A stretch of 64,000 nt of DNA from an uncultured Planctomycetales bacterium (GTDB lineage: Bacteria > Omnitrophota > Gorgyraeia > Gygaellales > Profunditerraquicolaceae), in assembly GCA_964427405.1 (NCBI GenBank), contig CAYRUB010000001.1:157884-221883 (forward strand), given 5' to 3'. A program made the translations under genes and the position numbers. Each line of letters starts with the position of its first letter. Position 1 is the first letter of the stretch. The notes beneath the pieces are model-generated. The model was not told the DNA's origin. It ran no database searches and saw nothing but the letters and a program-made list of their open reading frames with translations. Positions 1,166 to 57,559 of the stretch are shown here, in pieces.

Positions 1166-1543
1166 TTACTTTTTCTTATTCGGCATTCCAGAATGCGAAC
1201 CTACGCTTGGACCGGAAACTGCCTTAAATTCTCCTTTTCTGTATTTCTCAATTGCCTCCTTTACCGTACCTGATGCACCGGTGAAAATTTCTATCCCTGC
1301 CACCTGTAATGTCTGAAAGGCATTAGGACCAACATTGCCCGTAACTACCGCCTTAACTTGTTTAGAGCTGACTAACTGCGCCGATTGAATTCCCGCGCCT
1401 CCCATAGATTCGATATTCGGATTTACAATAGCTTCAAATTCTAAAGTATCGGTATCAGCAATAATAAAATATTGACACCTGCCGAATCGCGGATCTACCT
1501 TAGAATCTAAACTACCGCCTTCTGAAGTAATACATATTTTCAT
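1166..1543 (-). CDS. NifX/NifB-like dinitrogenase FeMo-cofactor-binding domain protein
   Basis: 125 aa. MKICITSEGGSLDSKVDPRFGRC...AVVTGNVGPNA matches the family pattern. GGGAGGTGA RBS upstream. Confidence 0.65.
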   Translation of the reverse strand: MKICITSEGGSLDSKVDPRFGRCQYFIIADTDTLEFEAIVNPNIESMGGAGIQSAQLVSSKQVKAVVTGNVGPNAFQTLQVAGIEIFTGASGTVKEAIEKYRKGEFKAVSGPSVGSHSGMPNKKK

Positions 1544-1956
1544 ATATTCTCACCTCCCGAATGATCACATTCCTCTTTATGAGGGTGATCACATTCTCCT
1601 TTTTCTAAACCATAGCCTTTACCTGCTCCAGGTTTACAAAGGCTCTCGCCGCCTTCTAAGGTGCCTTTTTTAAGCTGTTCTACCACATCATCAATCTTAC
1701 CGCTTACCCCTACAATCGTCTTGATGCTATATTCCTCAAAAAATGAGGTTGCCCGCATTCCCATACCTCCGGCAACAATACAATTTACGCCTTTTTTATG
1801 TAAAAATTCAGGGATTGCGCCCGGTTGATGCCCGGGATTTGCCACTTCCGTCCTCTTAATTACCTTGCCATTTTCGATATCAACGAGGATAAAAGAAGGG
1901 CATCGGCCAAAATGGGCTGATACAAACTCTCCATCACTAGATATAGCTACACGCAT
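1540..1956 (-). CDS. NifX/NifB-like FeMo-cofactor-binding domain protein with Cys/His-rich tail
   Basis: MRVAISSDGEFVSAHFGRCPSF...CIVAGGMG is a paralogue of the neighbouring gene. AAAGGAG RBS upstream. 4-nt overlap with the downstream gene. Confidence 0.65.
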   Translation of the reverse strand: MRVAISSDGEFVSAHFGRCPSFILVDIENGKVIKRTEVANPGHQPGAIPEFLHKKGVNCIVAGGMGMRATSFFEEYSIKTIVGVSGKIDDVVEQLKKGTLEGGESLCKPGAGKGYGLEKGECDHPHKEECDHSGGENI

Positions 1957-2026
1957 AATCGCTCCTTTTTAATAAGCTGAAATAAAGGAATAAAAATTAA
2001 ACTCTATTCCCTCACCCCATACTAAC

Positions 2027-2539
2027 TTACTCACTTTTCCCTACCTGTGTTTTTTCCAAAATTTCAATACGGCCTTGAATATCCTCAAGCTGCTTTTTTA
2101 TAACATCCGCCTGCTTTTTTAAGATATCCGCCTCTTGTTTTGGAGTCACTTCTGGCGCATAAAGATACTCCCCGCCAAACGCAGGCATCCCTATCGTAGC
2201 TCTTTGCCATCCAGGAAGTCCAGTAGCGTAAAACCAATTTCTCCTGCCTCTACCACCTCCGCGGCCAAAGAATCCTCTACCCATACCAACATAACCTCTG
2301 CCAAAAATCGGATTCATATAACCGGGAGCATTGTATCCAGCGCAAAAACCCGCTGATCTTCCAGTCGTCGGGCCTAAACCCATAGGTCCAGTTCCATCTC
2401 CTCTAGGCATATCAAACACCCCCTTTCCTGTATTATTAATTTCCATATTATTAGAATCTAATTTCACGATACAATAACCCATACCGCGTCCTGTCATTAA
2501 TCCTTGTCCTCTCGGACCCCTTCCATCAAACCCAGGCAT
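2027..2539 (-). CDS. DUF5320 family Gly/Arg-rich protein with C-terminal coiled coil
   Basis: N-terminal MPGFDGRGPRGQGLMTGRGMGYC and repeated GRG motifs. This family commonly co-occurs with NifX-like/ferredoxin genes. Confidence 0.6.
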   Translation of the reverse strand: MPGFDGRGPRGQGLMTGRGMGYCIVKLDSNNMEINNTGKGVFDMPRGDGTGPMGLGPTTGRSAGFCAGYNAPGYMNPIFGRGYVGMGRGFFGRGGGRGRRNWFYATGLPGWQRATIGMPAFGGEYLYAPEVTPKQEADILKKQADVIKKQLEDIQGRIEILEKTQVGKSE

Positions 2540-2559
2540 AGCCGTTACCTCCTTTATTC

Positions 2560-2578
2560 TTAATGAAAATCATTTCCA
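2560..2578 (-). promoter_or_regulatory. Fur-box-like inverted repeat upstream of DUF5320 operon
   Basis: TTAATGAAAATCATTTCCA, with AATGA..TCATT arms, sits immediately upstream of the RBS. A near-identical site lies upstream of fur. Confidence 0.4.
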
Positions 2579-2602
2579 TTATTAGAGAAAAAAATATAGC
2601 GG

Positions 2603-3076
2603 TTATTTCTTTCCCCTACATTTGTCACATAAACCGTAGAATTGAATAAGATGATTGGTGATTTTAAAGTTATATTTCTGCCCCAATCCCTTTTCTGTCT
2701 GATTAAGCAGCTCAACTTCCTCATCAATAAAATCAGTATAGTCAATCACCTTATTACATTGCGTACATACCAAGTGATGGTGATGATGCGTTCCTTTAGG
2801 GCCTTCGGCAAATTCATATCGTGCCCGGCCATCTCCAAAATCAAGCTTATAGACCATGCCGAGGTTTGATAATACATCCAACGTCCGGTAAACAGTAGTC
2901 AGTCCTACGCTGGGATACTTTGGATGGAGCTTCATATATATATCTTCGGCGCTCAAGTGGCCTTCGGTTTTAGACATAATATCGAGGATGGCATCCCTGC
3001 CAACAGTAAGCCTATACCCACAGCCTCTGAATTTTCCGTGCCACCACCCCTGTCCTCTACATTCGCCTCTTGGCAT
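2603..3076 (-). CDS. fur: Fur family transcriptional regulator (Fur/Zur/PerR)
   Basis: 157 aa. DNA-binding helix RDAILDIM...SAEDIY, GLTTVYRTL, HHHHHLVCTQC and C-terminal CDKC metal sites. Confidence 0.8.
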   Translation of the reverse strand: MPRGECRGQGWWHGKFRGCGYRLTVGRDAILDIMSKTEGHLSAEDIYMKLHPKYPSVGLTTVYRTLDVLSNLGMVYKLDFGDGRARYEFAEGPKGTHHHHHLVCTQCNKVIDYTDFIDEEVELLNQTEKGLGQKYNFKITNHLIQFYGLCDKCRGKK

Positions 3077-3084
3077 ATATCTCC

Positions 3085-3103
3085 TTAATGAAAATGATTT
3101 CCA
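3085..3103 (-). promoter_or_regulatory. Fur-box-like autoregulatory site in the fur promoter
   Basis: TTAATGAAAATGATTTCCA lies between a TTGACA-17-TATATT promoter (about 3110-3136) and the fur RBS. It is a 19-mer almost identical to the one at 2560-2578. Confidence 0.45.
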
Positions 3104-3150
3104 GTTTCAAATATACACTATACTGCTATTCTTGTCAAGCTTTTTCTTAT

Positions 3151-3492
3151 CTAATGTTCGCTTGGCAGTATTAAGACGCCATTTTCGAACCATAGATCAA
3201 TCTTATTTATCGGAAAATCCGTCCACTCAATCTTCTCCCGATAGAGCTCATGGTAATTGCCGTCCTCGCACACCAGGACTGCCGATCTATCCTCATTGAC
3301 CTCAAGCTTCCAGGTGCCGAATTCCTGTAAGTTCTTTTTCGCTCTTGTCGTGAGTAGTATCTTATCAATTAGCCAATATGCGCCGCCCACTTGCGCGACG
3401 TATTGAACCCCATCGGTGTAAAGATATCCGCTTAGATGTTTGTACCAATGCTCTGTGCCGCTAAATTGCCTTAATTCATTTACCGTTAACAT
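3151..3492 (-). CDS. DUF6876-like protein (plasmid leading-region-type small protein)
   Basis: Start at MLTVNELRQFSGTEHWY..., which has an AAGGAGGG RBS and the TEHWY/LYTDGV/GAYWL pattern recalled for DUF6876. The ORF-track N-terminal extension is rejected. Confidence 0.4.
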   Translation of the reverse strand: MLTVNELRQFSGTEHWYKHLSGYLYTDGVQYVAQVGGAYWLIDKILLTTRAKKNLQEFGTWKLEVNEDRSAVLVCEDGNYHELYREKIEWTDFPINKIDLWFENGVLILPSEH

Positions 3493-3704
3493 TTTAAACC
3501 CTCCTTGGTAATACAGGAAAAATAGCAGTTCCTGCAATCGTTATTATTTTCACTTGAGCATTTCTCACAAATAGGATCTTTGTCCATAGAAGCTATAGAT
3601 CGTAGCAACAGCTTCTCAACCACCACAGTCATTGGCCTTCCCTGTGCCTGCTTTAACCTATAAAGTGTCTTAATCATTGTTTCGCTTAATATTGGGCTAT
3701 ACAT
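3486..3704 (-). CDS. hypothetical small Cys-rich protein
   Basis: 72 aa, GGAGG RBS, CxxC...CxxC pairs (CEKC, CRNC). Tightly packed with flanking small genes. Confidence 0.3.
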   Translation of the reverse strand: MYSPILSETMIKTLYRLKQAQGRPMTVVVEKLLLRSIASMDKDPICEKCSSENNNDCRNCYFSCITKEGLKC

Positions 3705-3826
3705 TCTTGCCTCGCCTCCTCTGGTTTGCCTGCAACCTCAACCCATAACACGCCATCAATTACCACCCAATCCTGGATTTCGCTCCAGCTTGTTTCCTTC
3801 GTTAATTTGTCCTTTTGTATCCACAT
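3686..3826 (-). CDS. hypothetical 46-aa protein
   Basis: ATG at 3826 preceded by an AGGAGG RBS (MWIQKDKLTKETSWSEIQDWVVIDG...). Below the ORF-track size cutoff. Overlaps the start of the neighbouring gene. Confidence 0.2.
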   Translation of the reverse strand: MWIQKDKLTKETSWSEIQDWVVIDGVLWVEVAGKPEEARQECIAQY

Positions 3827-3839
3827 TTTTCTATTCCTC

Positions 3840-4043
3840 CTATTCTTCGTTAGGAAACATCATCGTAATGACGCCTCCATCGTTTACTACCCAAACCTCT
3901 ACTCCGGCAAACCAGAAAACCTGTAAACTAAGCAGGCTTGGATCATGTTCTTTTCTTGCGTCAACCTGCTGCCAGATTCGTTCAATCTGACCCATGGTTA
4001 ACCTTTCCGATACTTGATCTGTAATCTTTTTGATTTCCTGCAT
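3840..4043 (-). CDS. hypothetical protein (translationally coupled, TAATG overlap)
   Basis: 67 aa. Its ATG overlaps the stop of the upstream gene. GGGAGGTGA RBS. Confidence 0.35.
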   Translation of the reverse strand: MQEIKKITDQVSERLTMGQIERIWQQVDARKEHDPSLLSLQVFWFAGVEVWVVNDGGVITMMFPNEE

Positions 4044-4336
4044 TAGAAATCACCTCCCTCATCAAGCAAATCCTGATGCTTCTCAACAAAAGATTCTAAA
4101 GTTTCAGAACCATTTGGTTTAAAGCCTTTAGCCATAAGTTTATAAACGTTCTTCATTAGATTTCTTTCTTCCCAGAGAGCGGATAAGCCGAATGCCTGCT
4201 CCGGAAGATCCTCTTGATACGTTCTGTATTGAGAATCTCGGCTGCTTTGATACCTTTCCATACAGGCATCCGCGCGTAAGACCCCATCCTCAAATTTTTC
4301 GTTTTTCTTTAGTATTTCTTTTTTTACTTGGCTCAT
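4043..4336 (-). CDS. hypothetical protein, first gene behind leader copy 1 (starts MSQVK)
   Basis: Start at 4336 is fixed by conservation of GGAGG-N5-ATGAGCCAAGTAAAA with the copy at 8158. The upstream part of the 172-aa ORF-track entry is leader, not coding. Confidence 0.45.
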   Translation of the reverse strand: MSQVKKEILKKNEKFEDGVLRADACMERYQSSRDSQYRTYQEDLPEQAFGLSALWEERNLMKNVYKLMAKGFKPNGSETLESFVEKHQDLLDEGGDF

Positions 4337-4700
4337 GTGAGCCTCCTTTCTTTTGACGCCTAAAAATCCAAGCCCAATGATTTGAAGTGATTTCTGAGGC
4401 AAACCACAGAAATCACGGTCTTTTGTCAAGAAAACAGGTAAGCCCGAAAGGAGCGAGCGATAAGCGAGAGAGTTTCCTGGAGTCCTTGAGAAAAATTGAG
4501 ACTCCCCGAAGGGGCAGAATGCTTCTGATACCTTGCATCTTGAGGCAGACCACAAGTGCAAGGTAGAGATGAATTATTCTCAAGGATTTTCTTGCACAAA
4601 AGTCAATCTTGGGCTATTTTTACGGCGGAGAAGAAGAAAGAGGCGTAACTTGAAGACAAAGAAAAACAGAAAAGAAAATTTGAGGATGGAGAGAAAAGCG
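4337..4700 (-). promoter_or_regulatory. structured ~360-nt leader element, copy 1 (novel; RNA leader or ssDNA-promoter-like)
   Basis: About 80% identical to 8159-8525. Hairpins at 4387-4416 and 4529-4565 have stems that differ from copy 2 but stay perfectly paired, with a conserved loop TGG(T/G)(T/C)TGCCT. The 5' segment (about 4634-4643) is complementary to the RBS (4342-4354). Confidence 0.5.
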
Positions 4701-4754
4701 CGGAACCGTGGAAAGGCTGGAATTCTTAGCTATCCGCTCTCTGAAACGCTGCCT

Positions 4755-4949
4755 TTATTTGGGCTGATTTAAAATTTTCTTATTTTCAAACCCCTTTGCC
4801 CGGTATTCGATTATGTGGTAATGAATTGAGCCTTCTGCATCAACGTATCCAAGCGTTATATCAGCCATTTTGATATCGCTGTCCAAAGTCAAGTCATCGA
4901 AGTTTTTAATCTGCCTGTGTAATTCCCTGAACCAGTTATCGACTTTCAT
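4755..4949 (-). CDS. hypothetical protein
   Basis: 64-aa ORF with an AAAGGACGGG RBS. Lies between leader copy 1 and IR-L. Confidence 0.3.
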   Translation of the reverse strand: MKVDNWFRELHRQIKNFDDLTLDSDIKMADITLGYVDAEGSIHYHIIEYRAKGFENKKILNQPK

Positions 4950-4990
4950 ATTTCCCGTCCTTTCTTTTAATTAACTTCTTAAAATTATCT

Positions 4991-5136
4991 ATTACCCCCA
5001 AGCACTTAAAGCTCACGGCGGGCGGTGGCCTACGAGGCGCCTTTTTCAACAACCCTCTCGAAGGCTACCGCACGCCAGTCCCAATCAAAATCCACCAAAC
5101 CACCCAACCAACAAAACCCTTTAATCAGGGCGGGGC
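4991..5136. repeat. 146-bp perfect inverted repeat, left copy (IR-L)
   Basis: Base-for-base reverse complement of 39534-39679. About 55% GC in a ~40% GC context. Ends 19 bp from the JAB gene stop. Confidence 0.9.
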
Positions 5137-5155
5137 GAATTTAGCTAAACTATAC

Positions 5156-5962
5156 TTAGCTTCCGGCTGGTATTTGCAGGCGTCCTTTCTCTTCCGGGTA
5201 ATTCTTGACGTATTTTGCTATTTTTTCGCAGGAAGAACATATATCAGCTCCATTGCAGACTTCGCAAAAAGGAAGCACTCCCTGGATATTTAAGCCAGCA
5301 GTTTGCTTGCAGGTCTTACATTTGAAAGTTTCACACGCCTGACAAGCCAAATACGGCATACCCATGTGAGGACAATTTTCACAATCAGCTGTTTGGCAAA
5401 ATTCACAGGGATTTTCCTCATCTTCAAATTGTGAAGATGCCTCCGGCAATAGCTCTCTTGTTCTTTCGCTTATCTTTGAAAGATCAATCCCGGGCAGTTC
5501 AATTAATTGAAGCTGAATTTTTATATAGCCAAAACCATTACAGGGGAGTTTTATCCTTTTCGTGGCAATGCTGCCTTTTGCATTAGCGATGACGATGCTA
5601 TAAGTATAGAGATTTCTGGCATGGGCGTCGTCTTGCGATGAATGGAACGCCCCCATATCATGGTGCGAATGGATTATCCCGTCTCCTCCTAATTCCTCTT
5701 TGAATTCGCAGTCAACTGAACCTACTTCCTGCTTTGGGATCTTGAAGCTGGTTATGGTGTTATCTTTCACCCAGAATACCGCGCCCCACTCCTTATCCCC
5801 CATGCGCTGGCTGATATAAGTCCATTGACTCCAGATACTCCAGGGTATATTTAGGGTTTCTTTATGGTCATGGTCGCTGCAAAAGCCGCATTCACCGTAA
5901 TTCTTTATCTTTACATCTAAAATATTGCTTCTCTTTTCTGTAGCTTGCTCTAAAGTAAACAT
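5156..5962 (-). CDS. JAB/JAMM (MPN+) metallopeptidase with C-terminal multi-CxxC zinc ribbons
   Basis: HSHHDMGAFHSSQDD matches the JAMM motif HxHx7Sx2D exactly. The tail carries more than 6 CxxC pairs (CEFC, CENC, CQAC, CKTC, CEVC, CSSC). Confidence 0.8.
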   Translation of the reverse strand: MFTLEQATEKRSNILDVKIKNYGECGFCSDHDHKETLNIPWSIWSQWTYISQRMGDKEWGAVFWVKDNTITSFKIPKQEVGSVDCEFKEELGGDGIIHSHHDMGAFHSSQDDAHARNLYTYSIVIANAKGSIATKRIKLPCNGFGYIKIQLQLIELPGIDLSKISERTRELLPEASSQFEDEENPCEFCQTADCENCPHMGMPYLACQACETFKCKTCKQTAGLNIQGVLPFCEVCNGADICSSCEKIAKYVKNYPEEKGRLQIPAGS

Positions 5963-5963
5963 T

Positions 5964-6890
5964 TTATTTCCCTCCTTTCGCTTTTAGCCATTTTTTAAGG
6001 GCTTCCAACAGTTTTGAATCGGTGATTTCTCCTGTTTCAATCTCACAAATTATCCAGTCATATTCATTATTCTTTGCTTTTTCTTTTATATCTTTTATCT
6101 CATCATCGCTGTAATGTTCATCACAATCAGGGCAGTATCCGTAATCAGAGCCGTCAGGATCAATCCTTGAGCAGTCTTCACAGTAACCATAACTGTCAGG
6201 TATGTGTTCTTCGATGTTATCCAGGATGTTTCCTTCGCCTTCGTTTCTTGCGTCATCTAGGATTTTGGGGCAGATATGAGTTGAGTGCTGGATATGAAGT
6301 TTTCCCAGATCATCCATAAGGCAAAGTTCCTTGTATGCCCTTGAGGATATTCCTGCCGCAGCTGCAAGCACTGCCGGTATTACCCAGGAAGGCGTTACTG
6401 TATAACCCTGTTCTTCTTCTGCATCCTTCAAGGAAAGCGGGAATGTCTTTGAGACATTCAAGATTGTACCGTCATAGCCTATTCTCTGGTAGTTAAGATC
6501 ATTCTTCTTGCAGAAAGCACATATTATCTGCTGGCTTTTTAAATTATCCGTGCAGCAGAATATGTCGCCTCGCAAAATCTGGCAGTCTATTGGCTTTTCA
6601 ATACGTGAATCCTGAATCTCAATCCTTATTCCTTTTCTCACCTGGCAGATGAGTTCTTTCAAGGCTTCCGCTTTCTTTTTGCCGACAGCTTTTTCTTCTA
6701 AGAGAAGCCTGTTCAAGTTGGATACTTCAACTATGTCAGAATCAATTAAAATCAACTCTTCTACTCCTGACATAGCAAGAAGAAGCGCAGTCCAGAAGCC
6801 TGTCCCGCCACAACCGACAATTGAGGCGATTTGCGGAATATTTAAACCTTCTACTAAGTTCTGTCTTTCGTAAATAGCAAGTTCTGGCAT
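5964..6890 (-). CDS. ThiF/MoeB-type E1-like adenylyltransferase
   Basis: IVGCGGTGFWTALLLAMSGVEELILIDSDIVEVSNLNRL is the Rossmann/adenylation motif. C-terminal CEDC...CPDC zinc site. No rhodanese domain. Confidence 0.85.
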   Translation of the reverse strand: MPELAIYERQNLVEGLNIPQIASIVGCGGTGFWTALLLAMSGVEELILIDSDIVEVSNLNRLLLEEKAVGKKKAEALKELICQVRKGIRIEIQDSRIEKPIDCQILRGDIFCCTDNLKSQQIICAFCKKNDLNYQRIGYDGTILNVSKTFPLSLKDAEEEQGYTVTPSWVIPAVLAAAAGISSRAYKELCLMDDLGKLHIQHSTHICPKILDDARNEGEGNILDNIEEHIPDSYGYCEDCSRIDPDGSDYGYCPDCDEHYSDDEIKDIKEKAKNNEYDWIICEIETGEITDSKLLEALKKWLKAKGGK

Positions 6891-6902
6891 ATTTCTTCTC
6901 TC

Positions 6903-7499
6903 CTATATGATTGACTCAATTAAACCCTCATCGCTTAATTCTTTGAATTTGCACAACACATCTTTGTCTTTATTTGACAAAATGTTCCAAAGAGTTGAGT
7001 ATGTCTTAGGCAGGATCACAGTACCCAAAGATTCAAGGTTTATAACCCGGAACGACTTGATTATTTTTAGACAGGCTTCCTTTAAAAGCCCTAAGGATTC
7101 AGGATTAAGGTATTGGATTTCACCGGTGCAGATGGTGTGCCCCTTATCGGTCAATCCAAGATAGTGAAAACCTATCTCCGGTTCTGATACAAAAGCTATA
7201 AAGCAGCCTCTCTGGTCATAGATGCCGTAAATCTTAAAGGGATAGTATTTGATAGGCGTCTTTAGAAAATAGGTTTTATCCTTATAATAAAGCTTGTCTA
7301 TAAGCAGGAGGCCAGAATAGCCCTCTATAAGCATATCGTCTTCCTTTATCATGCAGCTATAGCCTCCGGTAAAGGGAACCGTAAAGATGCCTTCCTTCAG
7401 GCCTTGGACAAATTCCCGCCAAGAGGTATCAATTTTTTCGATAAGGGTTGATTTCTTTTTAGCTTTAACGATCAATTCTGTATCCATCATTGCTTTCAA
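6903..7499 (-). CDS. putative E2-like (UBC-fold) protein
   Basis: 198 aa between the Ubl and E1 genes. HYLGLTDKGHTICTGE resembles the E2 H-x-N...G-x-I-C active-site region. AAAGGAG RBS. The assignment rests on motif and position only. Confidence 0.35.
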   Translation of the reverse strand: MKAMMDTELIVKAKKKSTLIEKIDTSWREFVQGLKEGIFTVPFTGGYSCMIKEDDMLIEGYSGLLLIDKLYYKDKTYFLKTPIKYYPFKIYGIYDQRGCFIAFVSEPEIGFHYLGLTDKGHTICTGEIQYLNPESLGLLKEACLKIIKSFRVINLESLGTVILPKTYSTLWNILSNKDKDVLCKFKELSDEGLIESII

Positions 7500-7560
7500 G
7501 CTCCTTTAAGCTTTAAGAGAGGGAGAAAAAGTTTCTCTCCCTCTCTTTTTAGCTTTTTTT

Positions 7561-7797
7561 CTAGCCGCCTGCTTTGACGTATCTTTCCACTTCGATATCG
7601 TGGCCGTCAAAGGTCGCAGGCAGGTTGTCGGTAGAGGTAACCTCTTCGCCGTCTACCAAGATGGTAAAGGAGTCAATGCCTTTTTCCTGCAAGAGGCGGG
7701 TTAAGGTGTCCTTTACGGCATCGCCCTTTTTTACCTCGAGCTCTTCTCCTGCTATTGTTATCTTTGTCTTTTCGTTTTTCAGTTCGTTTAAGTTCAT
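7561..7797 (-). CDS. ThiS/MoaD-like ubiquitin-like beta-grasp protein ending in Gly-Gly
   Basis: 78 aa. ...ILVDGEEV...FDGHDIEVERYVKAGG* has the typical ThiS/Ubl core and a C-terminal diglycine immediately before the stop. Confidence 0.7.
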   Translation of the reverse strand: MNLNELKNEKTKITIAGEELEVKKGDAVKDTLTRLLQEKGIDSFTILVDGEEVTSTDNLPATFDGHDIEVERYVKAGG

Positions 7798-7855
7798 TTT
7801 GTTCTGTCTTTCTCCCCGTATAGCCGATAGGACAGCTTTTAATTTTTAAATTCTT

Positions 7856-8158
7856 TTAAGCCTGGTAGGCTGCAAGAACCACTTCTTGCAATTCATTTTT
7901 TGCCTCAGGCGTTAAGAATTGGACGGTATCGTAATACTTACCGTCGCCAGCTAAATGGGATGGCATAGCTGCGAACAGCCCGCCCTCTTTTTTAGCCATG
8001 ACCCTGATGCCTTTGATTAAAACCGCGTCAGCGACTTTAATGTCAACAAAGGCCTTCAGGGAGCTTTCGTCTTTTTCGACTTTATAAACTCTGGCCACTT
8101 CAATCATGGTTTTCACCTCCTTTCGATTTGTTTTTTGTTTTGTTTTTACTTGGCTCAT
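7856..8158 (-). CDS. SpoVG-like protein, first gene behind leader copy 2 (starts MSQVK)
   Basis: IRVMAKKEGGLFAAMPSHLAGDGKYYDTVQF resembles the SpoVG core (IRVIDG..GLFVAMPS..DG..RDI..P). The N-terminal 17 aa are an extension that begins with the leader-encoded MSQVK. Confidence 0.55.
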   Translation of the reverse strand: MSQVKTKQKTNRKEVKTMIEVARVYKVEKDESSLKAFVDIKVADAVLIKGIRVMAKKEGGLFAAMPSHLAGDGKYYDTVQFLTPEAKNELQEVVLAAYQA

Positions 8159-8525
8159 GTAAGCCTCCTTTCTTTTGACGCCGGAAATTAAAACCCAAGA
8201 ATATGAAGTATTTTTCCAGGCAGCCCAGAAAAATACGGTCTTTTGTCAAGAAAACATGGAATGCCCGAAGGCAAACGACGCAAGGAGTGAACCTTCCTGG
8301 GAGTCCTTTGGAAAAATTGAGACTCCCCTATAGGGGCAGAATGCTTCTGATAGCTAAAAAGCCTTTCCGAGGCAGACCACGAAAAGGCTTTTTAGATAGA
8401 GATGAATCTTCCCAAAGGATTTTCTTGAAAAAAGTCAGGATTGGGTTATTGTAGGCGGATAAAAAGAAAGGAGGATTACGTGACGACAAGAGAAAACAAA
8501 AGACAAGGAAGGAAGTAACTGATTG
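8159..8525 (-). promoter_or_regulatory. structured ~370-nt leader element, copy 2 (novel)
   Basis: Hairpins at 8208-8236 (GTATTTTTC/GAAAAATAC) and 8356-8393 (AAAAAGCCTTT/AAAGGCTTTTT) carry the conserved TGGNNTGCCT loops. The 5' segment 8462-8474 AAAAAGAAAGGAGG region is complementary to the RBS region 8164-8182. A CCCC-TATA-GGGG hairpin plus T-run lies mid-element. Confidence 0.5.
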
Positions 8526-8712
8526 AAGTAGCGATTAAGGGTAGCTAAAAGATAAAACGGACTGTGAAATTTTTCTTAGCTGAATTAGAAGACCGAAAAA
8601 TATATATATTCTGGGTAGCTGAAATTGAAAGGAAGACATCACCTTGAAAGTTGAAACGATTGAAGAGTTTGTTAAAGCACCAAAGGTAAGACCTGCCGAC
8701 TTACGGATCTAC

Positions 8713-9366
8713 TTATCCTTGAAATTGACTCTGCTTGTACTCAGACTGGAAATATATTAATGGGACTATCCGCATAGCTTCAAGGATCTTTGGTCCGTGG
8801 CATTTTTTAAGCCTTTTTCCCGAATTGCATGGGCATATCTTATCTCGACTATATTCTCCAGAGGCTAATATTTTAAGAAATTTCTGAGCAGCAGTAAAAT
8901 CATTGGTATTAAAGAACTCACAATAAAATTCTATAACCCCTCGTCCATAATGTGAGCGCTCACCAAACGGCATATGGCCTGTTTTTTTATTGAAACAAAA
9001 GGAGAAAAGAAACGGAATCACTAAAAACTCAACAAATCCAATAAGGGTTTTACATTTACTGAATTTTATCCAATTATCTACTGGCGTGCCTAAACATAAT
9101 GTATCGTTTGTGTAATGATGAAAATCGCTCGGTATCCTTCCCCCCATTTCTTTAACTGAGGGCATCAGATCTGGGTAGCTAGACGGGATCGCGATGAATA
9201 ACTCAAAACCATCTTGGATTCTTACTTTTTCGAATTCGGAAGAAAAACCCAGGAAACCAAAAATATAATAATTATCATCGATATGCTTAAGGCTCAAACC
9301 TGTATATTTCTCATGAAGTTCTTGAAATTGTTTCTGAATAATATCGTCATAACCAATACTCGCCAT
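8713..9366 (-). CDS. E2-like protein with C-terminal SEC-C zinc motif (CBASS Cap2-short-like)
   Basis: Start at MASIGYDD (9366), overlapping the CD-NTase stop by about 20 nt. FHHYTNDTLCLG resembles the UBC HPN...C active site. The C-terminal CPCNSGKRLKKCHG is a SEC-C motif. Confidence 0.45.
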   Translation of the reverse strand: MASIGYDDIIQKQFQELHEKYTGLSLKHIDDNYYIFGFLGFSSEFEKVRIQDGFELFIAIPSSYPDLMPSVKEMGGRIPSDFHHYTNDTLCLGTPVDNWIKFSKCKTLIGFVEFLVIPFLFSFCFNKKTGHMPFGERSHYGRGVIEFYCEFFNTNDFTAAQKFLKILASGEYSRDKICPCNSGKRLKKCHGPKILEAMRIVPLIYFQSEYKQSQFQG

Positions 9367-10546
9367 TGCTGCTCCATGGTTTCGAAGGACTAATTTTAAC
9401 CTCAGGGTAAGATTGCGCAGAAGGCGTTTTCTGGTTACTAGTTCTATAGCCACATTTCTCGAGGACCTTCCCCATGGTTTTAATACCGAATATAACACCC
9501 AGGTACTCAATCATATCCTTAGTTGATGTTTTTGTTAGAGCCTCCTGCAAGTCTTTTTTAATCTTTTTCAACCAATCATAAAAGCTTTTCTCAAGCACAG
9601 GATCATCTAACCATTTATCTGCAAAGTTTTCATCTGGTTCAACAGGATTTCTTATAACTGTTTTAGTCCCATTTTTTTCGATATGTTTATCCATATTATC
9701 TACTATACGTATTAATGCATCAGCTAACCCTAATTCATTTTGATACGCGTGCGCCGCCAAGGTGGTTATAATCATCGAAGTCGGCTTGATCTTAAAATCT
9801 TTTTCGAACATAATATCACGGTGCCGCTTAAGAAGCTGAATAGTTTTCTGTAAGGGAGTTCTAACTTTGTAAACAGGAACGGCTTCTATTGAAGCATATA
9901 AGCGCTTTTCAAGAAGAGATATAGCCCCTTTCTCAAAAATGGTTCTCATTCTAAACTTGAACCATTCTGCATACCCCTTAGGATTAGTTTTTAACCAATT
10001 ATCGTCAATACGATCATAATTACCCAATGTATTATCGGTAAGACAAATACTTGTCTGCAGTAAATTCTCCCTTATTCCTGATTCAAGCAAATGTTTTTTG
10101 TAGGGCACATCTTGCTCTGGAATAGAAGCTAAAAAATCCATATGGAAATGAACATCATCTTCATATTCAATTCTCCAGCAACGTCTTTTATTCTCGGGCT
10201 TACTCTTCATATTTTTAGCAAGAGAGTAATCAGTTAACTCCTTACCGATTTTTTCCTTTAAGTCTTTTTGTGAAATCTCATTTTTAAGATAATTTAAACA
10301 ACATACCAAGTCAATATCATATCTGTCTTCTTCTGATGCAGGTCTAACTGTAGTTCCCAAAAGAAATGAACCTTGCGTATATATTTCAGGATTTCGATCT
10401 TTTAATGATGTACTCTCCTGTAACCACTTTGTTACCGATTCATATCGAAGTCTCGCTTCTTCAAATTGAGAATCGGAAATCTTTAAGGAATCCGCATATT
10501 TCTCTAATACATCATCCAATAATGTCATGCGATTATCTTGCATCAT
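9347..10546 (-). CDS. cGAS/DncV-like nucleotidyltransferase (CD-NTase) of a CBASS system
   Basis: QGSFLLGTTVRPASEEDRYDIDLV gives the GS...hDhD nucleotidyltransferase active site. A third acidic residue lies at HMDF. 399 aa. Confidence 0.8.
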   Translation of the reverse strand: MMQDNRMTLLDDVLEKYADSLKISDSQFEEARLRYESVTKWLQESTSLKDRNPEIYTQGSFLLGTTVRPASEEDRYDIDLVCCLNYLKNEISQKDLKEKIGKELTDYSLAKNMKSKPENKRRCWRIEYEDDVHFHMDFLASIPEQDVPYKKHLLESGIRENLLQTSICLTDNTLGNYDRIDDNWLKTNPKGYAEWFKFRMRTIFEKGAISLLEKRLYASIEAVPVYKVRTPLQKTIQLLKRHRDIMFEKDFKIKPTSMIITTLAAHAYQNELGLADALIRIVDNMDKHIEKNGTKTVIRNPVEPDENFADKWLDDPVLEKSFYDWLKKIKKDLQEALTKTSTKDMIEYLGVIFGIKTMGKVLEKCGYRTSNQKTPSAQSYPEVKISPSKPWSSNGEYWL

Positions 10547-10547
10547 T

Positions 10548-11483
10548 CTAACCTCCTGTGTTATAATCCAAGAATTCTTGGATTTTTTGTGAATTATTTG
10601 TAAAATCTTTTTCTGCTAAAAAGACTAAGTTATTGTACTCATTAGGATCATCTAACTTTAAAGGTTTAGCTGATTTAAAATTAATTCTTAATACCTGATT
10701 TTCCTCAAATAAAAGCTTAAGCATGTTGGTAGTTGTTTGAGACTGCAAGCTAAGAAGCATACCAATAAATTTTTGTCGACCCCACCTTGCCAAGAATCCC
10801 CATCCTAAGAACTTTTTCCACCATCGGTCTGACTGCGAATAGAAATTTTCCCCTTCGCCTGTGCCAATTGACAAAATCATTAGATTATTTATATTCTGAC
10901 CAAGACGACGCTTAGCTTCAATAGCCGCAATAAGAGCCGGATTATTTGCCCATAATCCTCCATCTGCTAAAAGAAAATTATCCATATAATAAGGATCAAA
11001 ATAGGTAGGGGCGGAACAAGAAGCCAATACTGCTTTATAGACTAGTCTATTAGGATCACGAGAAAAATTTTTATCGTACGAAGATTTAAACACATGAACG
11101 CAGCCATTCCCGATATCAGATGCAGGCAAAACTAAAGGTATGTCAATTTGGCCTAGCTTTCGATCATCACCATAGAGATTTCTTAAGATGTTTTCTAAAT
11201 CCTTATTATCATATCTGCTCACGAATAATCCAAACCAATGAAGAAATCGCTTCTTGAAGATCCGTTGACCATATTCCTTATAAAAATCTAATACTTTACT
11301 CGCAGTAAAGTTACAAGCTAATGATGCCGCGATGATTGCTCCTGTACTAGTTCCGGCTATTAGATTAAAACTTTTTAACCAATCAACACTATATTCTTCC
11401 TCAATGCGTTTTAATATATAAGCTGCATAAACACCACGATAACCACCACCGTCGATTGCTAAAATTTTAAATATTTTATCCAT
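10548..11483 (-). CDS. patatin-like phospholipase (CapV-type CBASS effector)
   Basis: DGGGYRG oxyanion motif, GTSTG nucleophile elbow and DGG catalytic Asp. Sits directly upstream of, and 2 nt from, the CD-NTase. Confidence 0.85.
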   Translation of the reverse strand: MDKIFKILAIDGGGYRGVYAAYILKRIEEEYSVDWLKSFNLIAGTSTGAIIAASLACNFTASKVLDFYKEYGQRIFKKRFLHWFGLFVSRYDNKDLENILRNLYGDDRKLGQIDIPLVLPASDIGNGCVHVFKSSYDKNFSRDPNRLVYKAVLASCSAPTYFDPYYMDNFLLADGGLWANNPALIAAIEAKRRLGQNINNLMILSIGTGEGENFYSQSDRWWKKFLGWGFLARWGRQKFIGMLLSLQSQTTTNMLKLLFEENQVLRINFKSAKPLKLDDPNEYNNLVFLAEKDFTNNSQKIQEFLDYNTGG

Positions 11484-13377: not shown

Positions 13378-13434
13378 GGAAACTCCTTTCTTTTGTTATG
13401 AAAACAACTGTTCTCAAAACAAATTGTTAAAGCT

Positions 13435-13681: not shown

Positions 13682-14317
13682 TTACTCCTTCCTTAAATTA
13701 GGTATAGTTGCTATAACAACACCTTGAATCTGAAAATCATCAGTTAAAATAATTGGTTTGTTTTTTTTATTGGAAGATTTTGGCTTTAAAATAATCATAT
13801 TGGGAGCGAGGTGAAACTCTTTAATTGTCGCCTCGCCATCAATTAATGCAACAACTTTATCTCCTTCATTAGCTGTTGGCTGCTGTCTAACTAACACAAG
13901 ATCGCCTTCATTAATTCCTGCTTTATCCATCGAATCTCCTCGCGCATGCAATAGATAATATTTTGCCCCTGGCTTTGCGAGAGAAGTAGAAACAGAAATA
14001 AACCCTTCTATATTTTCTTCTGCCAACATTGGTGCCCCACAAGCTACAACGCCAACCAAAGGAATATTAATGGTTTGAGCATGCATAGAACCAAGATCTG
14101 GATTCAAAACGAGGTGATAATCTCCGTCTTCAAGCTTTTTTATCACACCTTTTTCTTGAAGTTGCTCAAGAATAACCTGAATTGACCGGGGTGATTTGTA
14201 ACCAAGATCAACCATCAATTCCCTAATAGAAGGAGCTCGAGAACGATGCATAAGCCAATTTCTAATATGACGGATAGCCTCGATTTGCCTTTTTGTAAAC
14301 GTATTTTCGTTCTTCAT
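13682..14317 (-). CDS. lexA: LexA repressor (S24 self-cleaving peptidase)
   Basis: N-terminal wHTH, VVACG cleavage-site-like motif, ARGDSM and GDLVLV...K catalytic Ser/Lys motifs. Confidence 0.85.
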   Translation of the reverse strand: MKNENTFTKRQIEAIRHIRNWLMHRSRAPSIRELMVDLGYKSPRSIQVILEQLQEKGVIKKLEDGDYHLVLNPDLGSMHAQTINIPLVGVVACGAPMLAEENIEGFISVSTSLAKPGAKYYLLHARGDSMDKAGINEGDLVLVRQQPTANEGDKVVALIDGEATIKEFHLAPNMIILKPKSSNKKNKPIILTDDFQIQGVVIATIPNLRKE

Positions 14318-14353
14318 ACATACAAGTGTATACTACCGTATGTATTTTGTCAA
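14316..14353 (-). promoter_or_regulatory. lexA promoter with overlapping inverted repeat (candidate SOS operator), leaderless start
   Basis: Minus strand TTGACA(14353-14348)-17 nt-TACACT(14330-14325), then ATG 7 nt later. ATACATAC-N14-GTATGTAT inverted repeat (14316-14345) overlaps the -10 and the start codon. Confidence 0.4.
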
Positions 14354-14667
14354 GTAAAACAAACACCCAACAGAAGCAATATCGTTTGAATTATATTTGA
14401 TAGAATTATTTAGTTTAATAAAATTCGCTTCTAGTAATGCAGACTTGGGGATAGGCGTAAATAACTATACTCTCAGTTCGCAGAAGATAAAGTCTATACT
14501 AAGCCTTACTCTTAAGACTGCTACAAACCGAACAATGATTTTGTAACCTTGCTACTTCTTCATTATAAGCTTTTCTAAATTCAGGATTCTTTAAAGACTC
14601 TTCATCGATATGCTGGCTTACTGTTTTGGGAATCATTCTTTTTCTTTTTTTAGATTGTGGTTGCATC

Positions 14668-15408
14668 TTATCCAGCAAGATTACGTTCAATCTCTGCTAT
14701 TAGTATCTTTGGAAACCCCTTTATAATCATATGCTGATTGACAGGAAGAAAGGTTTTAAGCTCTTGTCTGAAATCAATCCTCCCGGATTTGACAACCTTT
14801 AGAATCTTTGCCTTTAATTGTTTATCCTGTATAAATACTTCCTTAAAGGCCATGCGGCTACGAAGAATAAAATAAAGATCGTAGAAATCCCGCGCCTTTT
14901 GGCGCGTAAGACAGGCTTGGATTTTTTCGGTAATAAGAATCTCTTCTTTAAGATGAATAAGCGTATAGGACACAACAAGGTCGGATTGGATGAGTGCCGC
15001 TGCCCCTAACCCCTTTTTACCAGGCCGTAAAGAAACCTCTACTTGAATCCGGCTTTTATACTCACTAGTATTAAACTGGAATATAGCGAGGTATCCGCCG
15101 GATGTACTTTTTGACTCAATAATCTCAGTTTGGATACCTTCCATTTCTATCTTAGTAAGGGCTCCTTCCATTAGGGTTTCGATACCTTTGATCGTAATAT
15201 TTACTCCGGTAAAATCTAAATCTTCCGAGAACCGCGGACTCTGCCAAATGATCCGCAATGCAGTGCCTCCCTTAAAAAGCAGACTATCGGAACCCTTTTC
15301 CTGATAAAGCCGAGAAAGAAACAGCTGCTGAAAATATTCCCGCACGACATTATCTATTGTCGTCTGCCATGTTTGAGCTAACTTTTGAACTTGTCTTTTT
15401 TCAATCAT
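14668..15408 (-). CDS. AbiEii/AbiGii-family nucleotidyltransferase toxin (type IV TA), possibly C-terminally truncated
   Basis: LFKGGTALRIIW...SEDLDF motifs. At 246 aa it is short for the family. Confidence 0.7.
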   Translation of the reverse strand: MIEKRQVQKLAQTWQTTIDNVVREYFQQLFLSRLYQEKGSDSLLFKGGTALRIIWQSPRFSEDLDFTGVNITIKGIETLMEGALTKIEMEGIQTEIIESKSTSGGYLAIFQFNTSEYKSRIQVEVSLRPGKKGLGAAALIQSDLVVSYTLIHLKEEILITEKIQACLTRQKARDFYDLYFILRSRMAFKEVFIQDKQLKAKILKVVKSGRIDFRQELKTFLPVNQHMIIKGFPKILIAEIERNLAG

Positions 15409-15998
15409 AAGATATCCTTAACCAGTTTTATCAAGCCCTTTTTGCCAAAAAGTTTTGCATATTCTATTACAGATTTTTTCTTTATGTCGCGGACATTAAG
15501 ACGCTCATTAAGAGTTTTTCGATTAAGACTAACAAAATAAAGGTAATCTGCGAGGGCCTTTTCCGGTTCGGCCATAAGAACAGTCATATCCCCTATCTTC
15601 TCTGTTCTATAGCCGCGATAAGCTGGTTTTTTAATGTGTGAATAAGTAAAAGACTTATTATTAACAACAAATTCCCGGGTAATCCGGGTTGTCACTGATG
15701 TTATTGTGTAAGCGAATTCAGGAATAATGCCATAATGGGAGAGGGCGTATTCAAAAGAGATGTAACTAGGCGCATAAAGCCTATTGGCAATAGCTTCATC
15801 TCTTGGCTGGTCAATTCTTAACGCATAAAGCCCATTTCTTACTTTAAGAAAAAGGTCATCGCAGTGATCCTTAATAAACTCCTGCGTCGCACGCAAAGAG
15901 ACACCAAAAACTCTCTGGAAGTCCGATGGAGAAAACAAACGGACTCCTTTCGCCTGAAGATGCTGCTGGACATATATTGGTTTAAGTTTTCGCTCCAT
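15405..15998 (-). CDS. AbiEi-family antitoxin/transcriptional regulator
   Basis: 197 aa, 4-nt overlap with the toxin gene. N-terminal wHTH-like region typical of AbiEi partners. Confidence 0.65.
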   Translation of the reverse strand: MERKLKPIYVQQHLQAKGVRLFSPSDFQRVFGVSLRATQEFIKDHCDDLFLKVRNGLYALRIDQPRDEAIANRLYAPSYISFEYALSHYGIIPEFAYTITSVTTRITREFVVNNKSFTYSHIKKPAYRGYRTEKIGDMTVLMAEPEKALADYLYFVSLNRKTLNERLNVRDIKKKSVIEYAKLFGKKGLIKLVKDIL

Positions 15999-16075
15999 AT
16001 GACGCTAAATGTTAAATGGGTATCTGGAGCGATTATACCTCATCTTTTGAGTTATGCAAGCCTTTTTTGGGTCAT

Positions 16076-21807: not shown

Positions 21808-22252
21808 ACTTTAATTTCCAGGTTATTGATTCTAATGACTTAGTAACACTCACTAAATCGTTATTGCCTTGGTTTACCACCACAATTTCGCTACCGTAAC
21901 CTTTAGAGGTGATCAGGCCTTTTGGCAGAAGTGTAGATACCGAAACACTTGATGTGTTGGAGGTAATTATATAAGCATTACCAAAAGGATTAACATCGCA
22001 TGCCTCTTGCACCAGATAGCTGGGGCGTAGGTCGAATAAACTCACCGGCCACGCCCCACGCTCGCTGTAGAATCTCGTGCTTGCCAAAGCTATTGAATCC
22101 AGTTCTTCAAGCGCTCTTATGCCTGAAGCAACCTGGCGTATTTTTGCCGCAGAACAAAACACTGCGGAAATAAATACCCCTGCCAGCATAAGCACAAGGC
22201 TCAGTTCGACTAAACTAAATCCCCTCCTCCTTTTTAAAACGTTATCGTCCAT
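21779..22252 (-). CDS. pseudopilin (prepilin-type N-terminal cleavage/methylation domain)
   Basis: RRGFSLVELSLVLMLAGV prepilin motif. Confidence 0.6.
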   Translation of the reverse strand: MDDNVLKRRRGFSLVELSLVLMLAGVFISAVFCSAAKIRQVASGIRALEELDSIALASTRFYSERGAWPVSLFDLRPSYLVQEACDVNPFGNAYIITSNTSSVSVSTLLPKGLITSKGYGSEIVVVNQGNNDLVSVTKSLESITWKLKYEKKYIYKQ

Positions 22253-22668: not shown

Positions 22669-22687
22669 TGCTCTCACCTCCTTTCTC

Positions 22688-39533: not shown

Positions 39534-39679
39534 GCCCCGCCCTGATTAAAGGGTTTTGTTGGTTGGGTGGTTTGGTGGATTTTGATTGGGACTGGCGTGC
39601 GGTAGCCTTCGAGAGGGTTGTTGAAAAAGGCGCCTCGTAGGCCACCGCCCGCCGTGAGCTTTAAGTGCTTGGGGGTAAT
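39534..39679. repeat. 146-bp perfect inverted repeat, right copy (IR-R)
   Basis: Exact reverse complement of 4991-5136. Lies 15 bp upstream of the start codon of the Replic_Relax-like gene at 39518, so the repeat is directly upstream of the tra operon. Confidence 0.9.
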
Positions 39680-39787
39680 AAACATACCTAGAAAATAATT
39701 AGCAAAATAATTAGCATACACAAAATCAATAAATTCGCATGTTGCTGCTAATTTCTTTAAAATTAATTTGCGAATTAATTTAACCAT

Positions 39788-57462: not shown

Positions 57463-57559
57463 TTTTATATATTAAAACATTGTTTAAGTAAAATGTCAAC
57501 CGATTCTTGATAAATAAAGGAGAGGGGGAGGGAATCTCCCCCTCTCCTTTACCGCTATC

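Follow-up and report, generated by a model that had tools for sequence, protein, structure and literature searches.

Giant hairpins heading early operons in conjugative elements of Candidatus Omnitrophota: a possible new class of single-stranded-DNA promoter

Two similar repeats that stand directly before unrelated genes raise the question of whether they lead the messages of those genes, promote their transcription or mark a junction at which operons have been exchanged. Such a pair occurs in a stretch of 64,000 nucleotides (nt; hereafter, the window) of contig CAYRUB010000001.1 (assembly GCA_964427405.1, positions 157,884 to 221,883 of the forward strand), which comes from an uncultured bacterium of the Omnitrophota. 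One copy heads the gene of a 97-amino-acid (97-aa) protein and the other heads an operon beginning with a SpoVG gene. The two repeats belong to an undescribed, widespread family of giant hairpins (about 400 bases) heading early (“establishment”) operons in conjugative elements of Candidatus Omnitrophota. The element is best explained as a self-contained cassette that expresses the leading-region operons of an F-type conjugative element. It may represent a new class of single-stranded-DNA (ssDNA) promoter similar to Frpo, ssi and ssp, possibly with silencing of read-through by RNA fold-back, and the probability of this reading is put at roughly one half. The two copies and their first genes are located as follows (RBS, ribosome-binding site; MFE, minimum free energy).

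4284 to 4689, minus strand: closed hairpin of copy 1, 97-aa type, 406 nt; template-strand DNA MFE -96.9 kcal/mol
8093 to 8533, minus strand: closed hairpin of copy 2, SpoVG type, 441 nt; template-strand DNA MFE -94.7 kcal/mol
4334 to 4346, minus strand: RBS (GGAGG, 4342-4346) and start (ATG, 4334-4336) of the 97-aa gene in copy 1, in the basal stem, paired with the pyrimidine-rich 5′ arm
8156 to 8168, minus strand: RBS (GGAGG, 8164-8168) and MSQVK start (ATG, 8156-8158) in copy 2, in the basal stem
4043 to 4336, minus strand: 97-aa gene, the first gene behind copy 1
7856 to 8158, minus strand: SpoVG gene behind copy 2; the SpoVG domain begins at an internal ATG (8105-8107)

The repeats and their family

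The original prediction described two minus-strand copies of a leader-like unit, and the pair was borne out. Positions 4280-4760(-) and 8100-8600(-) align with a mean column identity of 81% (MAFFT), and each copy scores E=1e-125 in nhmmer, which is far above chance. GGAGG-N5-ATGAGCCAAGTAAAA is common to both copies, with GGAGG-N5-ATG exact in each, and the blocks GGCGTCAAAAGAAAGGAGGCT and ACATGAGCCAAGTAAAAA are without any difference between them. The loss of likeness past codon 5 was also seen in the MAFFT alignment. A “third copy” at 13380-13421 (62% over 42 nt) is not detected by nhmmer and was treated as a chance match.

The nhmmer search was first run on contigs encoding homologues of the 97-aa protein, where the element precedes 97-aa and SpoVG genes, and a degenerate pattern made from three invariant blocks was used to scan species-representative genomes and metagenomes. 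The pattern matched 117 stretches in the metagenomes and 23 in the species-representative genomes; 18 of the latter are labelled Omnitrophota/Omnitrophica, and the remainder are short contigs of otherwise-labelled metagenome-assembled genomes (MAGs). Groundwater, peat and sediment are the sources of contigs with the element. Over 154 sources, nhmmer returned 202 matches, 184 of them full-length, representing 147 distinct copies. Because the element is so widespread, it is not a simple duplication confined to one genome, the case in which it had been expected to lose its interest.

The units measure 390-470 nt and number 2-6 per locus, each closing on an RBS and an ATG, and in all 36 loci with several copies (36/36) every copy lies on the same strand. 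The original prediction had left it to be checked which gene families follow. Of the 134 clustered open reading frames (ORFs) that begin inside the element, from the 147 distinct copies, 66 are of the 97-aa family, 63 are SpoVG genes and five are ungrouped singletons. Further back, the operons behind the element carry genes for RadC, DUF932, an orphan N6/N4 methylase, a DprA-like protein and DUF6876. A sensitive blastn search of 72,556 plasmids and 50,697 phages gave no match to the element, an exact 20-mer scan of viral contigs gave none, and Rfam gave none in the element region at the gathering score; at E<=1, positions 4200-8700 produced only a chance mir-208 (E=0.43).

A conserved, structured, multi-copy module placed right before mobile-element operons supports in substance the earlier description of a “portable regulatory or promoter cassette”. 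The accompanying idea of a “recombination junction for swapping cargo operons” fared worse, as 129 of the 134 clustered downstream ORFs fall in two families, the 5′ arms are type-specific, and neither target-site duplications nor an association with an integrase or recombinase was seen. It is barely plausible that the repeat is instead a mobile element resembling a miniature inverted-repeat transposable element, with terminal inverted repeats, or an attC-like cassette recombination site that shuffles cargo. The ends of the element are indeed inverted repeats, several same-strand copies lie between small operons, and homologous recombination can act on repeats of 80-90% identity, which may add to the mosaic gene content. 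However, the inverted ends are type-specific and include coding sequence, and the element is confined to two downstream gene families, one element family and essentially one phylum, with no matches in other contexts or in the plasmid and phage collections. It is also 3-7 times as long as attC (57-141 nt), and target-site duplications and an integron integrase are lacking. No tyrosine integrase is present in any locus table examined.

The largest array observed is in locus L004 (contig Ga0209515_10000021), where six same-strand copies within 8 kb (2139-10021) form a row of hairpin-headed mini-operons. They head three SpoVG paralogues, one of them followed by DUF932, as well as one 45-aa Cys-rich ORF and two 95-aa genes.

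Fold, covariation and strand preference

The original prediction put the unit at about 370 nt, ending at codon 5, and this did not hold: the closed hairpins are longer, 406 nt and 441 nt, and the stem enters the coding sequence, overlapping it by 52 nt past the ATG in copy 1 and by 65 nt in copy 2. When the homologues were checked for an end at codon 5, the 5′ arm of each type was found to pair well beyond it. In copy 1, the 5′ end CCATCCTCAAATTTTC (4674-4689) pairs with codons 13-18 of the 97-aa gene (4284-4300). Throughout the 97-aa-type copies, the 5′ end and codons 13-18 (EKFEDG) form 14-17 of 17 Watson-Crick pairs, and a changed coding sequence is met by a correspondingly changed 5′ arm. 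The 5′ end of copy 2, CGCTACTTCAATCA (8520-8533), pairs with the start region of SpoVG itself, TGATTGAAGTGGC (8093-8105); across the SpoVG type, 11-14 of 14 pairs form between the 5′ end, GCTACTTCAATCA, and the start proper of SpoVG, ATGATTGAAGTAGC. The stretch of stem common to the 97-aa and SpoVG types is what appears as the shared MSQVK codons.

From the base upward, the fold consists of a basal stem, in which the pyrimidine-rich 5′ arm lies against the RBS, the ATG and the next codons, a GCCCAAG/CTTGGGC helix, a TTGACA helix, a 15-bp helix (CCTTTGGAAAAATT/AATTTTTCCAAAGG) and three apical hairpins. Every side branch is on the 3′ half of the sense strand. The pairing was assessed on a 38-sequence alignment (A3) with 116 pairs in 20 helices, using per-sequence Watson-Crick-only folds projected on A3, as the alignment based on a hidden Markov model (HMM) and made for RNAalifold was too poor in the variable stems. 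Across the 116 pairs, 91.1% of cells are paired, compared with 85.8% in column shuffles and at most 58.5% with slid partners. Both sides have changed in 51 of the 116 pairs, against 28.1±2.9 in shuffles, and 0 of 500 shuffles reach 51.

The loop TGGKYTGCCT recurs in 2-4 hairpins per copy, and the window contains five matches to it where 0.42 are expected. Four of them are in the hairpins listed here.

4397 to 4406, minus strand: side hairpin hp3 of copy 1, conserved loop TGGTTTGCCT
4543 to 4552, minus strand: apical hairpin hp1 of copy 1, conserved loop TGGTCTGCCT; the stem covaries
8218 to 8227, minus strand: side hairpin hp3 of copy 2, loop TGGGCTGCCT
8370 to 8379, minus strand: apical hairpin hp1 of copy 2, loop TGGTCTGCCT; the stem, A5...T5, is terminator-like

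The fifth exact match, at 3722-3731 (+), is probably due to chance; it falls within an ORF of 46 codons located downstream of the 97-aa gene. Copies at L004 9556-10021, L008 9553-10021, L104 and L070 possess an insert of about 70 nt located 3′ of the TTGACA helix, which brings an extra hairpin with a TGGTCTGCCT-type loop. These inserts suggest that the loop hairpins of the element are modular units.

The DNA fold has z-scores of -8.2 to -9.6 for either strand of both copies. In a sliding fold of 300-nt DNA pieces, the method used to mine the ssDNA promoters of pESBL (PMC12672017), copy 1 ranks first in the 64-kb window (-68.7 kcal/mol, residual z -5.95) and copy 2 is among the best (-53.4 kcal/mol). 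The stretch at 22000-22600, in the transfer region and partly intergenic (22253-22687), is also among the lowest raw fold energies of the window; its G+C content is 0.52-0.57, and it is no outlier after correction for G+C.

Several comparisons bear on which of the two strands folds. The template strand folds more stably in 42 of 43 representative copies, by a mean of 9.4 kcal/mol, part of which is compositional. At equal compositional expectation, the MFE folds contain 168 G.T wobble pairs on the template strand and 74 on the sense strand, and the isolated mismatches, written in sense letters, comprise 64 A.C and 24 G.T. The wobble bias of the template strand is found in both cassette types. 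Structured RNAs tolerate G.U far more than A.C, and the lack of a G.U-over-A.C signature on the sense strand argues against a purely RNA-level constraint. Modest as they are, these tests fit a DNA hairpin in which the template strand is mildly preferred.

A predicted promoter in the folded template strand

The promoter-like sequences of the two copies, together with a conserved block that lies outside the hairpin, are given below. Arm B denotes the arm of the folded template strand that carries the boxes, and arm A the opposite arm.

4592 to 4620, plus strand: predicted hairpin promoter on arm B of copy 1 (TTGCAC 4592-4597, 17 nt, TATTTT 4615-4620)
8425 to 8452, plus strand: predicted hairpin promoter on arm B of copy 2 (TTGAAA 8425-8430, 16 nt, TATTGT 8447-8452)
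4424 to 4429, minus strand: sense TTGACA of copy 1, near-invariant; when the template strand folds, the complement of this hexamer pairs with the arm-B -35 box
8244 to 8249, minus strand: sense TTGACA of copy 2, near-invariant
8534 to 8605, minus strand: conserved upstream block of the SpoVG type, about 70 nt, outside the hairpin (TAGCCTTCTAGTCCAGCTATAAAG...-like, TAGCCTTCTAGTCCAGCTATAAAGTTTTT...CCATTTTAGCCACCCTTAACC)

The sense TTGACA is kept in 144 of the 147 copies. The arm-B anchor is present in 138 of 147, and all 138 have TTG followed by 2-3 nt and AAAAG, with a spacer of 16-17 nt. The -10 box reads TAT..T in 136 of the 138 (TATTGT 105, TATTTT 16, TATACT 12, TATTCT 3) and TTTACT in the other two. 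The hexamer positions of arm B are 86-91% conserved, though they lie in a weakly paired, A/T-rich internal loop with a variable opposite side. The 2-3 nt after TTG are CAC, AGC, TAC, AT, AA or AGT and never the partner-matching AC; extrusion of one base gives a canonical TTGACA/TGTCAA duplex in 112 of the 138 copies, and the MFE fold of copy 1 bulges the C, so that the duplex is TTG(C)ACA. In duplex DNA, the arm-B boxes face away from the genes. The folded template strand is predicted from its sequence to rebuild -35 and -10 boxes directed into the downstream genes.

The favoured ssDNA-promoter mechanism would proceed as follows. The template strand, which is the plus strand of the window, would enter the recipient as ssDNA, and about 400-440 nt of it would fold into a long branched hairpin. 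Arm B would offer in one continuous strand an A/T-rich stretch, then the -35 box, the spacer of 16-17 nt and the TATTKT -10 box in the weakly paired A/T-rich internal loop. Its -35 box would become a canonical TTGACA duplex solely in the fold, with one bulged nucleotide or one mismatch tolerated. Arm A would serve as the template, with RNA polymerase beginning some 20-25 nt before the start codon and moving down the rest of the stem, past GGCGTCAAAAG, the RBS and the ATG, into the operon. The predicted start would thus fall near GGCGTCAAAAG, at about 4352-4360 in copy 1 and 8176-8184 in copy 2 on the minus strand. The downstream stem would contain the RBS, the ATG and the first 17-22 codons, and being built from these it would explain the identity of the copies through GGAGG-N5-ATG-MSQVK. 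Once the ssDNA had become double-stranded DNA (dsDNA), the boxes would face away from the genes and the -35 box would be degraded, so that expression would stop. Any RNA reading through from genes upstream would mask the RBS by folding back on it and would not be translated. We infer from these features which strand is transferred, the use of the fold by RNA polymerase, the position of the start and the block of read-through.

The term “leader” in the original prediction implied a transcribed RNA. This is possible, yet it is not the best-supported reading, and as the whole explanation it appears somewhat unlikely. The entire element would then be part of the transcript, made by read-through or from a promoter further upstream that may be non-canonical, and the 5′ arm would hide the RBS, the start and the first codons. 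Translation would need processing (e.g., by RNase III), a trans factor such as SpoVG, or co-transcriptional kinetics, and the structure might in addition terminate or insulate read-through. The sense RNA does fold stably, with -129 and -135 kcal/mol for copies 1 and 2 (z -5.8 and -7.9), with both the Shine-Dalgarno (SD) sequence and the AUG paired and several U.G pairs in the SD helix. The pairing enters the coding sequence, as in fold-back inhibition. A CUUCGG motif, 100% conserved, could be a UUCG tetraloop, hairpins hp1 and hp3 are terminator-like in some copies, and the conserved 70-nt block precedes the SpoVG-type copies. The repeat EGeRS1 provides a parallel, in that it stops read-through depending on its orientation (PMC8708921).

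Other observations weigh against a purely RNA-level role. No conserved sigma-70-like promoter was found on the sense strand from -130 to +470 relative to the hairpin start in either type; the sense TTGACA is followed by a covarying side hairpin, which leaves it without a suitably spaced -10 box. The paired columns have no G.U excess (106 vs 120 A.C), and the isolated mismatches and MFE wobble pairs are biased in the opposite direction. A block formed by a helix of about -130 kcal/mol would be practically irreversible. The conserved, unpaired TATTKT, 16-17 nt from TTG on the other strand, would be left unexplained, and the leader has no match in Rfam. In known fold-back leaders, such as those of the IS10/IS50 transposase mRNA and the hok-family mRNAs, a distal upstream segment pairs with the RBS and the start codon, and only transcripts starting inside the element are translatable. 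Their helices are tens of bp long rather than a 400-nt branched rod, and they are not known to have repeated loop motifs or an association with conjugative leading regions. RNA fold-back fits the ssDNA-promoter model as a secondary layer and not as its replacement. If the RNA leader were nevertheless the true explanation, the element would be among the largest translational fold-back leaders known.

The ~70-nt block itself is not present in 97-aa-type copies, and its conservation ends sharply where variable cargo begins. Its template strand reads as an outward-facing TTGAAG-17-TAAAAT in 14 of 34 copies.

The duplex retains the boxes intact, and this allows for an ordinary dsDNA regulatory region, in which TTG-N17-TATTKT would be an outward or antisense promoter, and the dyad and loops would be operators for a LexA-like or SpoVG regulator. 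A LexA/S24 repressor gene is located at 13682-14317, and the establishment genes of p576 are under a repressor acting on repeated operators (PMC6294495). This reading is nevertheless very improbable: 51 covarying pairs, 20 helices and a length of 400 nt are not expected of operators, the outward promoter has no conserved downstream target, with the upstream neighbours of SpoVG-type copies varying, and the duplex form of the -35 box is poor in most copies.

The conjugative element and comparison with known systems

Every gene of the window is on the minus strand. Positions from about 3.1 to 41.3 kb are a conjugative element with an F-type transfer system, flanked by chromosomal parts at 1166-3076 (Fur, DUF5320 and a FeMo-cofactor-like protein) and beyond about 41.4 kb. 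Its transfer genes encode a TraC/VirB4-like protein (30057-32594), TrbI, the type IV coupling protein (T4CP), a weak Replic_Relax-like protein and TraG_N, and relatives add TraU, TraF, TraH and TraE. In the window and in locus L002, the cassettes are co-oriented with the tra genes. From the transfer genes towards the left end, the order is a gene like those of insertion sequences (IS), AbiEii, LexA/S24, a metallo-beta-lactamase (MBL)-fold protein, an operon of a cyclic-oligonucleotide-based anti-phage signalling system (CBASS), and copy 2 with its SpoVG operon; 3′ of the SpoVG operon follow a repeat arm, a 64-aa gene, copy 1, the 97-aa gene, small genes and DUF6876. The repeat arms concerned are the following.

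4990 to 5136, strand not applicable: left arm of the inverted repeat, 147 nt; conserved upstream of the 64-aa/element/97-aa module in other loci
39534 to 39680, strand not applicable: right arm of the inverted repeat, 147 nt; directly upstream of the Replic_Relax-like gene

The two arms are 100% identical, and the left arm lies between copy 1 and copy 2. The earlier placement of copy 1 outside and copy 2 inside the repeat-bounded segment stands, with the length of the repeat corrected from 146 to 147 nt. The repeat holds a 20-bp imperfect hairpin, and its similarity to the origin of transfer (oriT) of F is no better than that of shuffles; it may be a candidate oriT or a (bidirectional) promoter region. 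Between the arms, a segment of 34.4 kb holds most transfer genes, the cargo and copy 2. In five other loci (L005, L057, L067, L090 and L106), the 64-aa/element/97-aa module is divergent from the Replic_Relax-like gene, and two loci (L107 and L108) contain the reciprocal junction, with TraG_N convergent with the JAB or SpoVG end. This indicates that the 34-kb segment exists in both orientations in nature, and it may be invertible by homologous or relaxase/recombinase-mediated recombination. If synteny with F is taken as a guide, both cassettes of the window would lie on the template strand, separated by a few kb from the repeat copy that precedes the relaxase-like gene.

The two orientations are also relevant to another explanation, according to which the hairpin serves only in single-strand initiation or as a roadblock, recruiting RNA polymerase or primase for the complementary strand, or stalling synthesis, and is not a gene promoter. 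The hairpin is nearly strand-symmetric and would fold whichever strand goes, its conserved loop motifs suggest a protein-binding site, and there are precedents in Frpo, which primes DNA synthesis, and in ssp2, which is a structural roadblock (bioRxiv 10.64898/2026.01.09.698686; PMC12672017). Such a role would leave unexplained the exact end of each copy on an RBS and start codon, the stem made of the gene's own codons, and the presence of up to six copies that each head an operon, and it is improbable as a full account.

A number of points weigh against the ssDNA-promoter reading. The sole relaxase candidate is the Replic_Relax match (E=5e-5), which is below the Pfam threshold; with F-like polarity, the arrangement of the five divergent loci would mean that copy-1-type cassettes are transferred there as the sense strand. 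About half of the template-over-sense gap is compositional (4.4 kcal/mol in mononucleotide shuffles vs 9.4), so only part of the strand difference is informative, and the column-based count is symmetric (106 G.T vs 120 A.C) and picks no strand. The 300-nt energies, -68.7 and -53.4, miss the pESBL cut-off of -75 kcal/mol, the G+C content being about 43% here and higher in pESBL. The best-conserved hexamer, TTGACA, is on the sense strand and not on the proposed non-template arm, and to our knowledge there is no tested precedent for a bulge within a -35 box. A weaker second candidate of the template strand is found on arm A (TTGACG, 16-17 nt, AATGAT or AAGAAT), which makes the start site ambiguous. 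A linear sigma-70 scan of F Frpo1/Frpo2 missed the published boxes, and the promoter geometry is therefore not calibrated on a known case. The boxes were judged by the sigma-70 consensus, which may not be that of Omnitrophota, and the ~70-nt block upstream of SpoVG-type copies could hide a non-canonical promoter.

A fuller version of the ssDNA-promoter reading, distinctly unlikely to be right in all its parts, would treat the element as a hairpin-gated promoter. Its -35 duplex would arise only in the fold, by extrusion; its own RBS and about 20 codons would be the downstream duplex, so that coding sequence and promoter would co-evolve; and its TGGKYTGCCT loops would dock a protein of the element, for which SpoVG, the invariant first gene of one type, would be a candidate. 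The 34-kb segment would act as a switch of the repeat copy beside the relaxase-like gene, and hence of the cassettes delivered as template strand.

The nearest known counterparts are the promoters of plasmid leading regions. In F, Frpo1 and Frpo2 are 92% identical, lie 5 kb apart, each stand before a different leading operon and are active only on ssDNA (PMC9849209). The F repeat was reproduced here as 548 bp with 90% identity; it lies in front of ssb and ygeA, stopping about 21 nt short of each ATG. The transferred strand of Frpo1/Frpo2 is 8-15 kcal/mol more stable, and the F leading genes share the tra orientation and point to oriT. IncI/IncF plasmids possess three unrelated classes of hairpin ssDNA promoter, including, besides Frpo, two unrelated classes whose start sites are mapped (PMC12672017). 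Anti-defence genes are concentrated in leading regions, where their islands carry Frpo-like promoters (PMC11541004).

The present element resembles these systems (F Frpo1/2, ColIb-P9 ssi1-3 and pESBL) in being a large imperfect stem-loop in non-coding DNA right before leading operons, in having several diverged copies per element before different operons, and in the co-orientation of leading and tra genes. The template strand folds somewhat better in both, and promoter boxes are rebuilt in the fold, which is here a prediction. DUF932 and methylase genes lie downstream, DUF932 being also found behind F Frpo1. In contrast, the element has no sequence similarity to them: blastn gave no match to Frpo/ssi1-3, ssp2 or ssp3, and thus it does not belong to class 1, 2 or 3 and is at most a new class. 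It occurs in an integrated element of an uncultivated phylum, whereas the known ones are from plasmids of Enterobacteriaceae. Its stem takes in the RBS, the start codon and 17-22 codons, whereas the F repeats stop about 21 nt before the ATG. Its -35 box is completed by a bulge, and its hairpins have the conserved TGGKYTGCCT loops. Activity on ssDNA has been seen for the plasmid promoters, whereas the present element is known from sequence alone.

The closest non-enterobacterial analogue is EGeRS1 of pLS20, a set of five structured repeats of 420-750 bp, 62-95% identical, located directly before the RBS of establishment operons; it has no promoter activity in duplex DNA, and its block of read-through depends on orientation (PMC8708921). 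The likeness includes the position of a repeated structured unit immediately before the RBS of an establishment operon, a complex predicted ssDNA/RNA structure, no detectable sigma-A promoter in the duplex, a proposed rapid, transient expression and mosaic, variable operons behind. The two differ in that they share no sequence (no blastn match in the plasmid collection), that EGeRS1 has a G+C content of 51% in a plasmid of 38% while the present element has 0.42-0.44 in a window of 0.415, and that EGeRS1 ends before the RBS while the present unit overlaps the RBS and the first codons. As the mechanism of EGeRS1 is itself not settled, the analogy leaves that of the present element unfixed.

So far, the only demonstrated ssDNA promoters are those of enterobacterial IncF and IncI plasmids, and the family bears on the open question of how general “zygotic induction” from folded ssDNA is across bacteria. 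It offers about 150 natural variants from a distant uncultivated phylum, with covariation, conserved promoter geometry and a mutable bulged -35 box, the latter giving a direct test design for how RNA polymerase reads a hairpin promoter. The family would also be of use in annotating the leading regions of metagenomic mobile elements and their regulons for establishment or anti-defence, including the operon of SpoVG, a ThiF/E1-like protein and a JAB peptidase.

The genes assigned to the two copies by the original prediction were confirmed in part. Pfam supported SpoVG, ThiF/E1 and Prok-JAB, and the 97-aa ORF indeed belongs to no described family, with no match in PHROGs, PADLOC, Pfam or PDB. The operon behind copy 2 runs SpoVG, a 78-aa protein (ending in ...KAGG), a 195-aa protein, ThiF/E1 and Prok-JAB; the 78-aa and 195-aa proteins have no sequence match in Pfam, PADLOC or PDB, so that the labels “Ubl” and “E2” given to them were not confirmed. 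The MSQVK start of copy 2 opens an in-frame, Lys-rich extension of 17 codons, encoded by the stem and located 5′ of SpoVG's own RBS and ATG (8105-8107). The 97-aa family comprises 129 homologues, nearly all from Candidatus Omnitrophota MAGs and metagenomes. The N-termini of 120 homologues read MSQVK, MSQEK, MRQEK or MRKE, which indicates that MSQVK is the native N-terminus of the family. The AlphaFold model of the 97-aa protein (predicted local distance difference test score, pLDDT, 67; predicted template modelling score, pTM, 0.40) was too weak for a fold search.

The CBASS operon at 8713-11483 (-), directly upstream of copy 2, encodes a patatin-like effector, a CD-NTase cyclase and an E2-only accessory protein with a SEC-C motif. 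Other loci hold different cargo at this position, for instance restriction-modification genes in L006. Between the transfer genes and the cargo, at 13682-17414 (-), are the LexA/S24-type repressor gene, a pair of genes resembling AbiEii and AbiEi, and an IS-like transposase made up of two ORFs (HTH_28 and others). An integrase was not seen at either of the element's ends in the window, whereas in the relatives L008 and L010 a large serine recombinase stands at the end. The chromosomal sequence of the window contains two riboswitches: one for cyclic di-GMP (c-di-GMP-I) at 56225-56304 (-), with 66 bits, and one for thiamine pyrophosphate (TPP) at 57355-57468 (-), with 58 bits.

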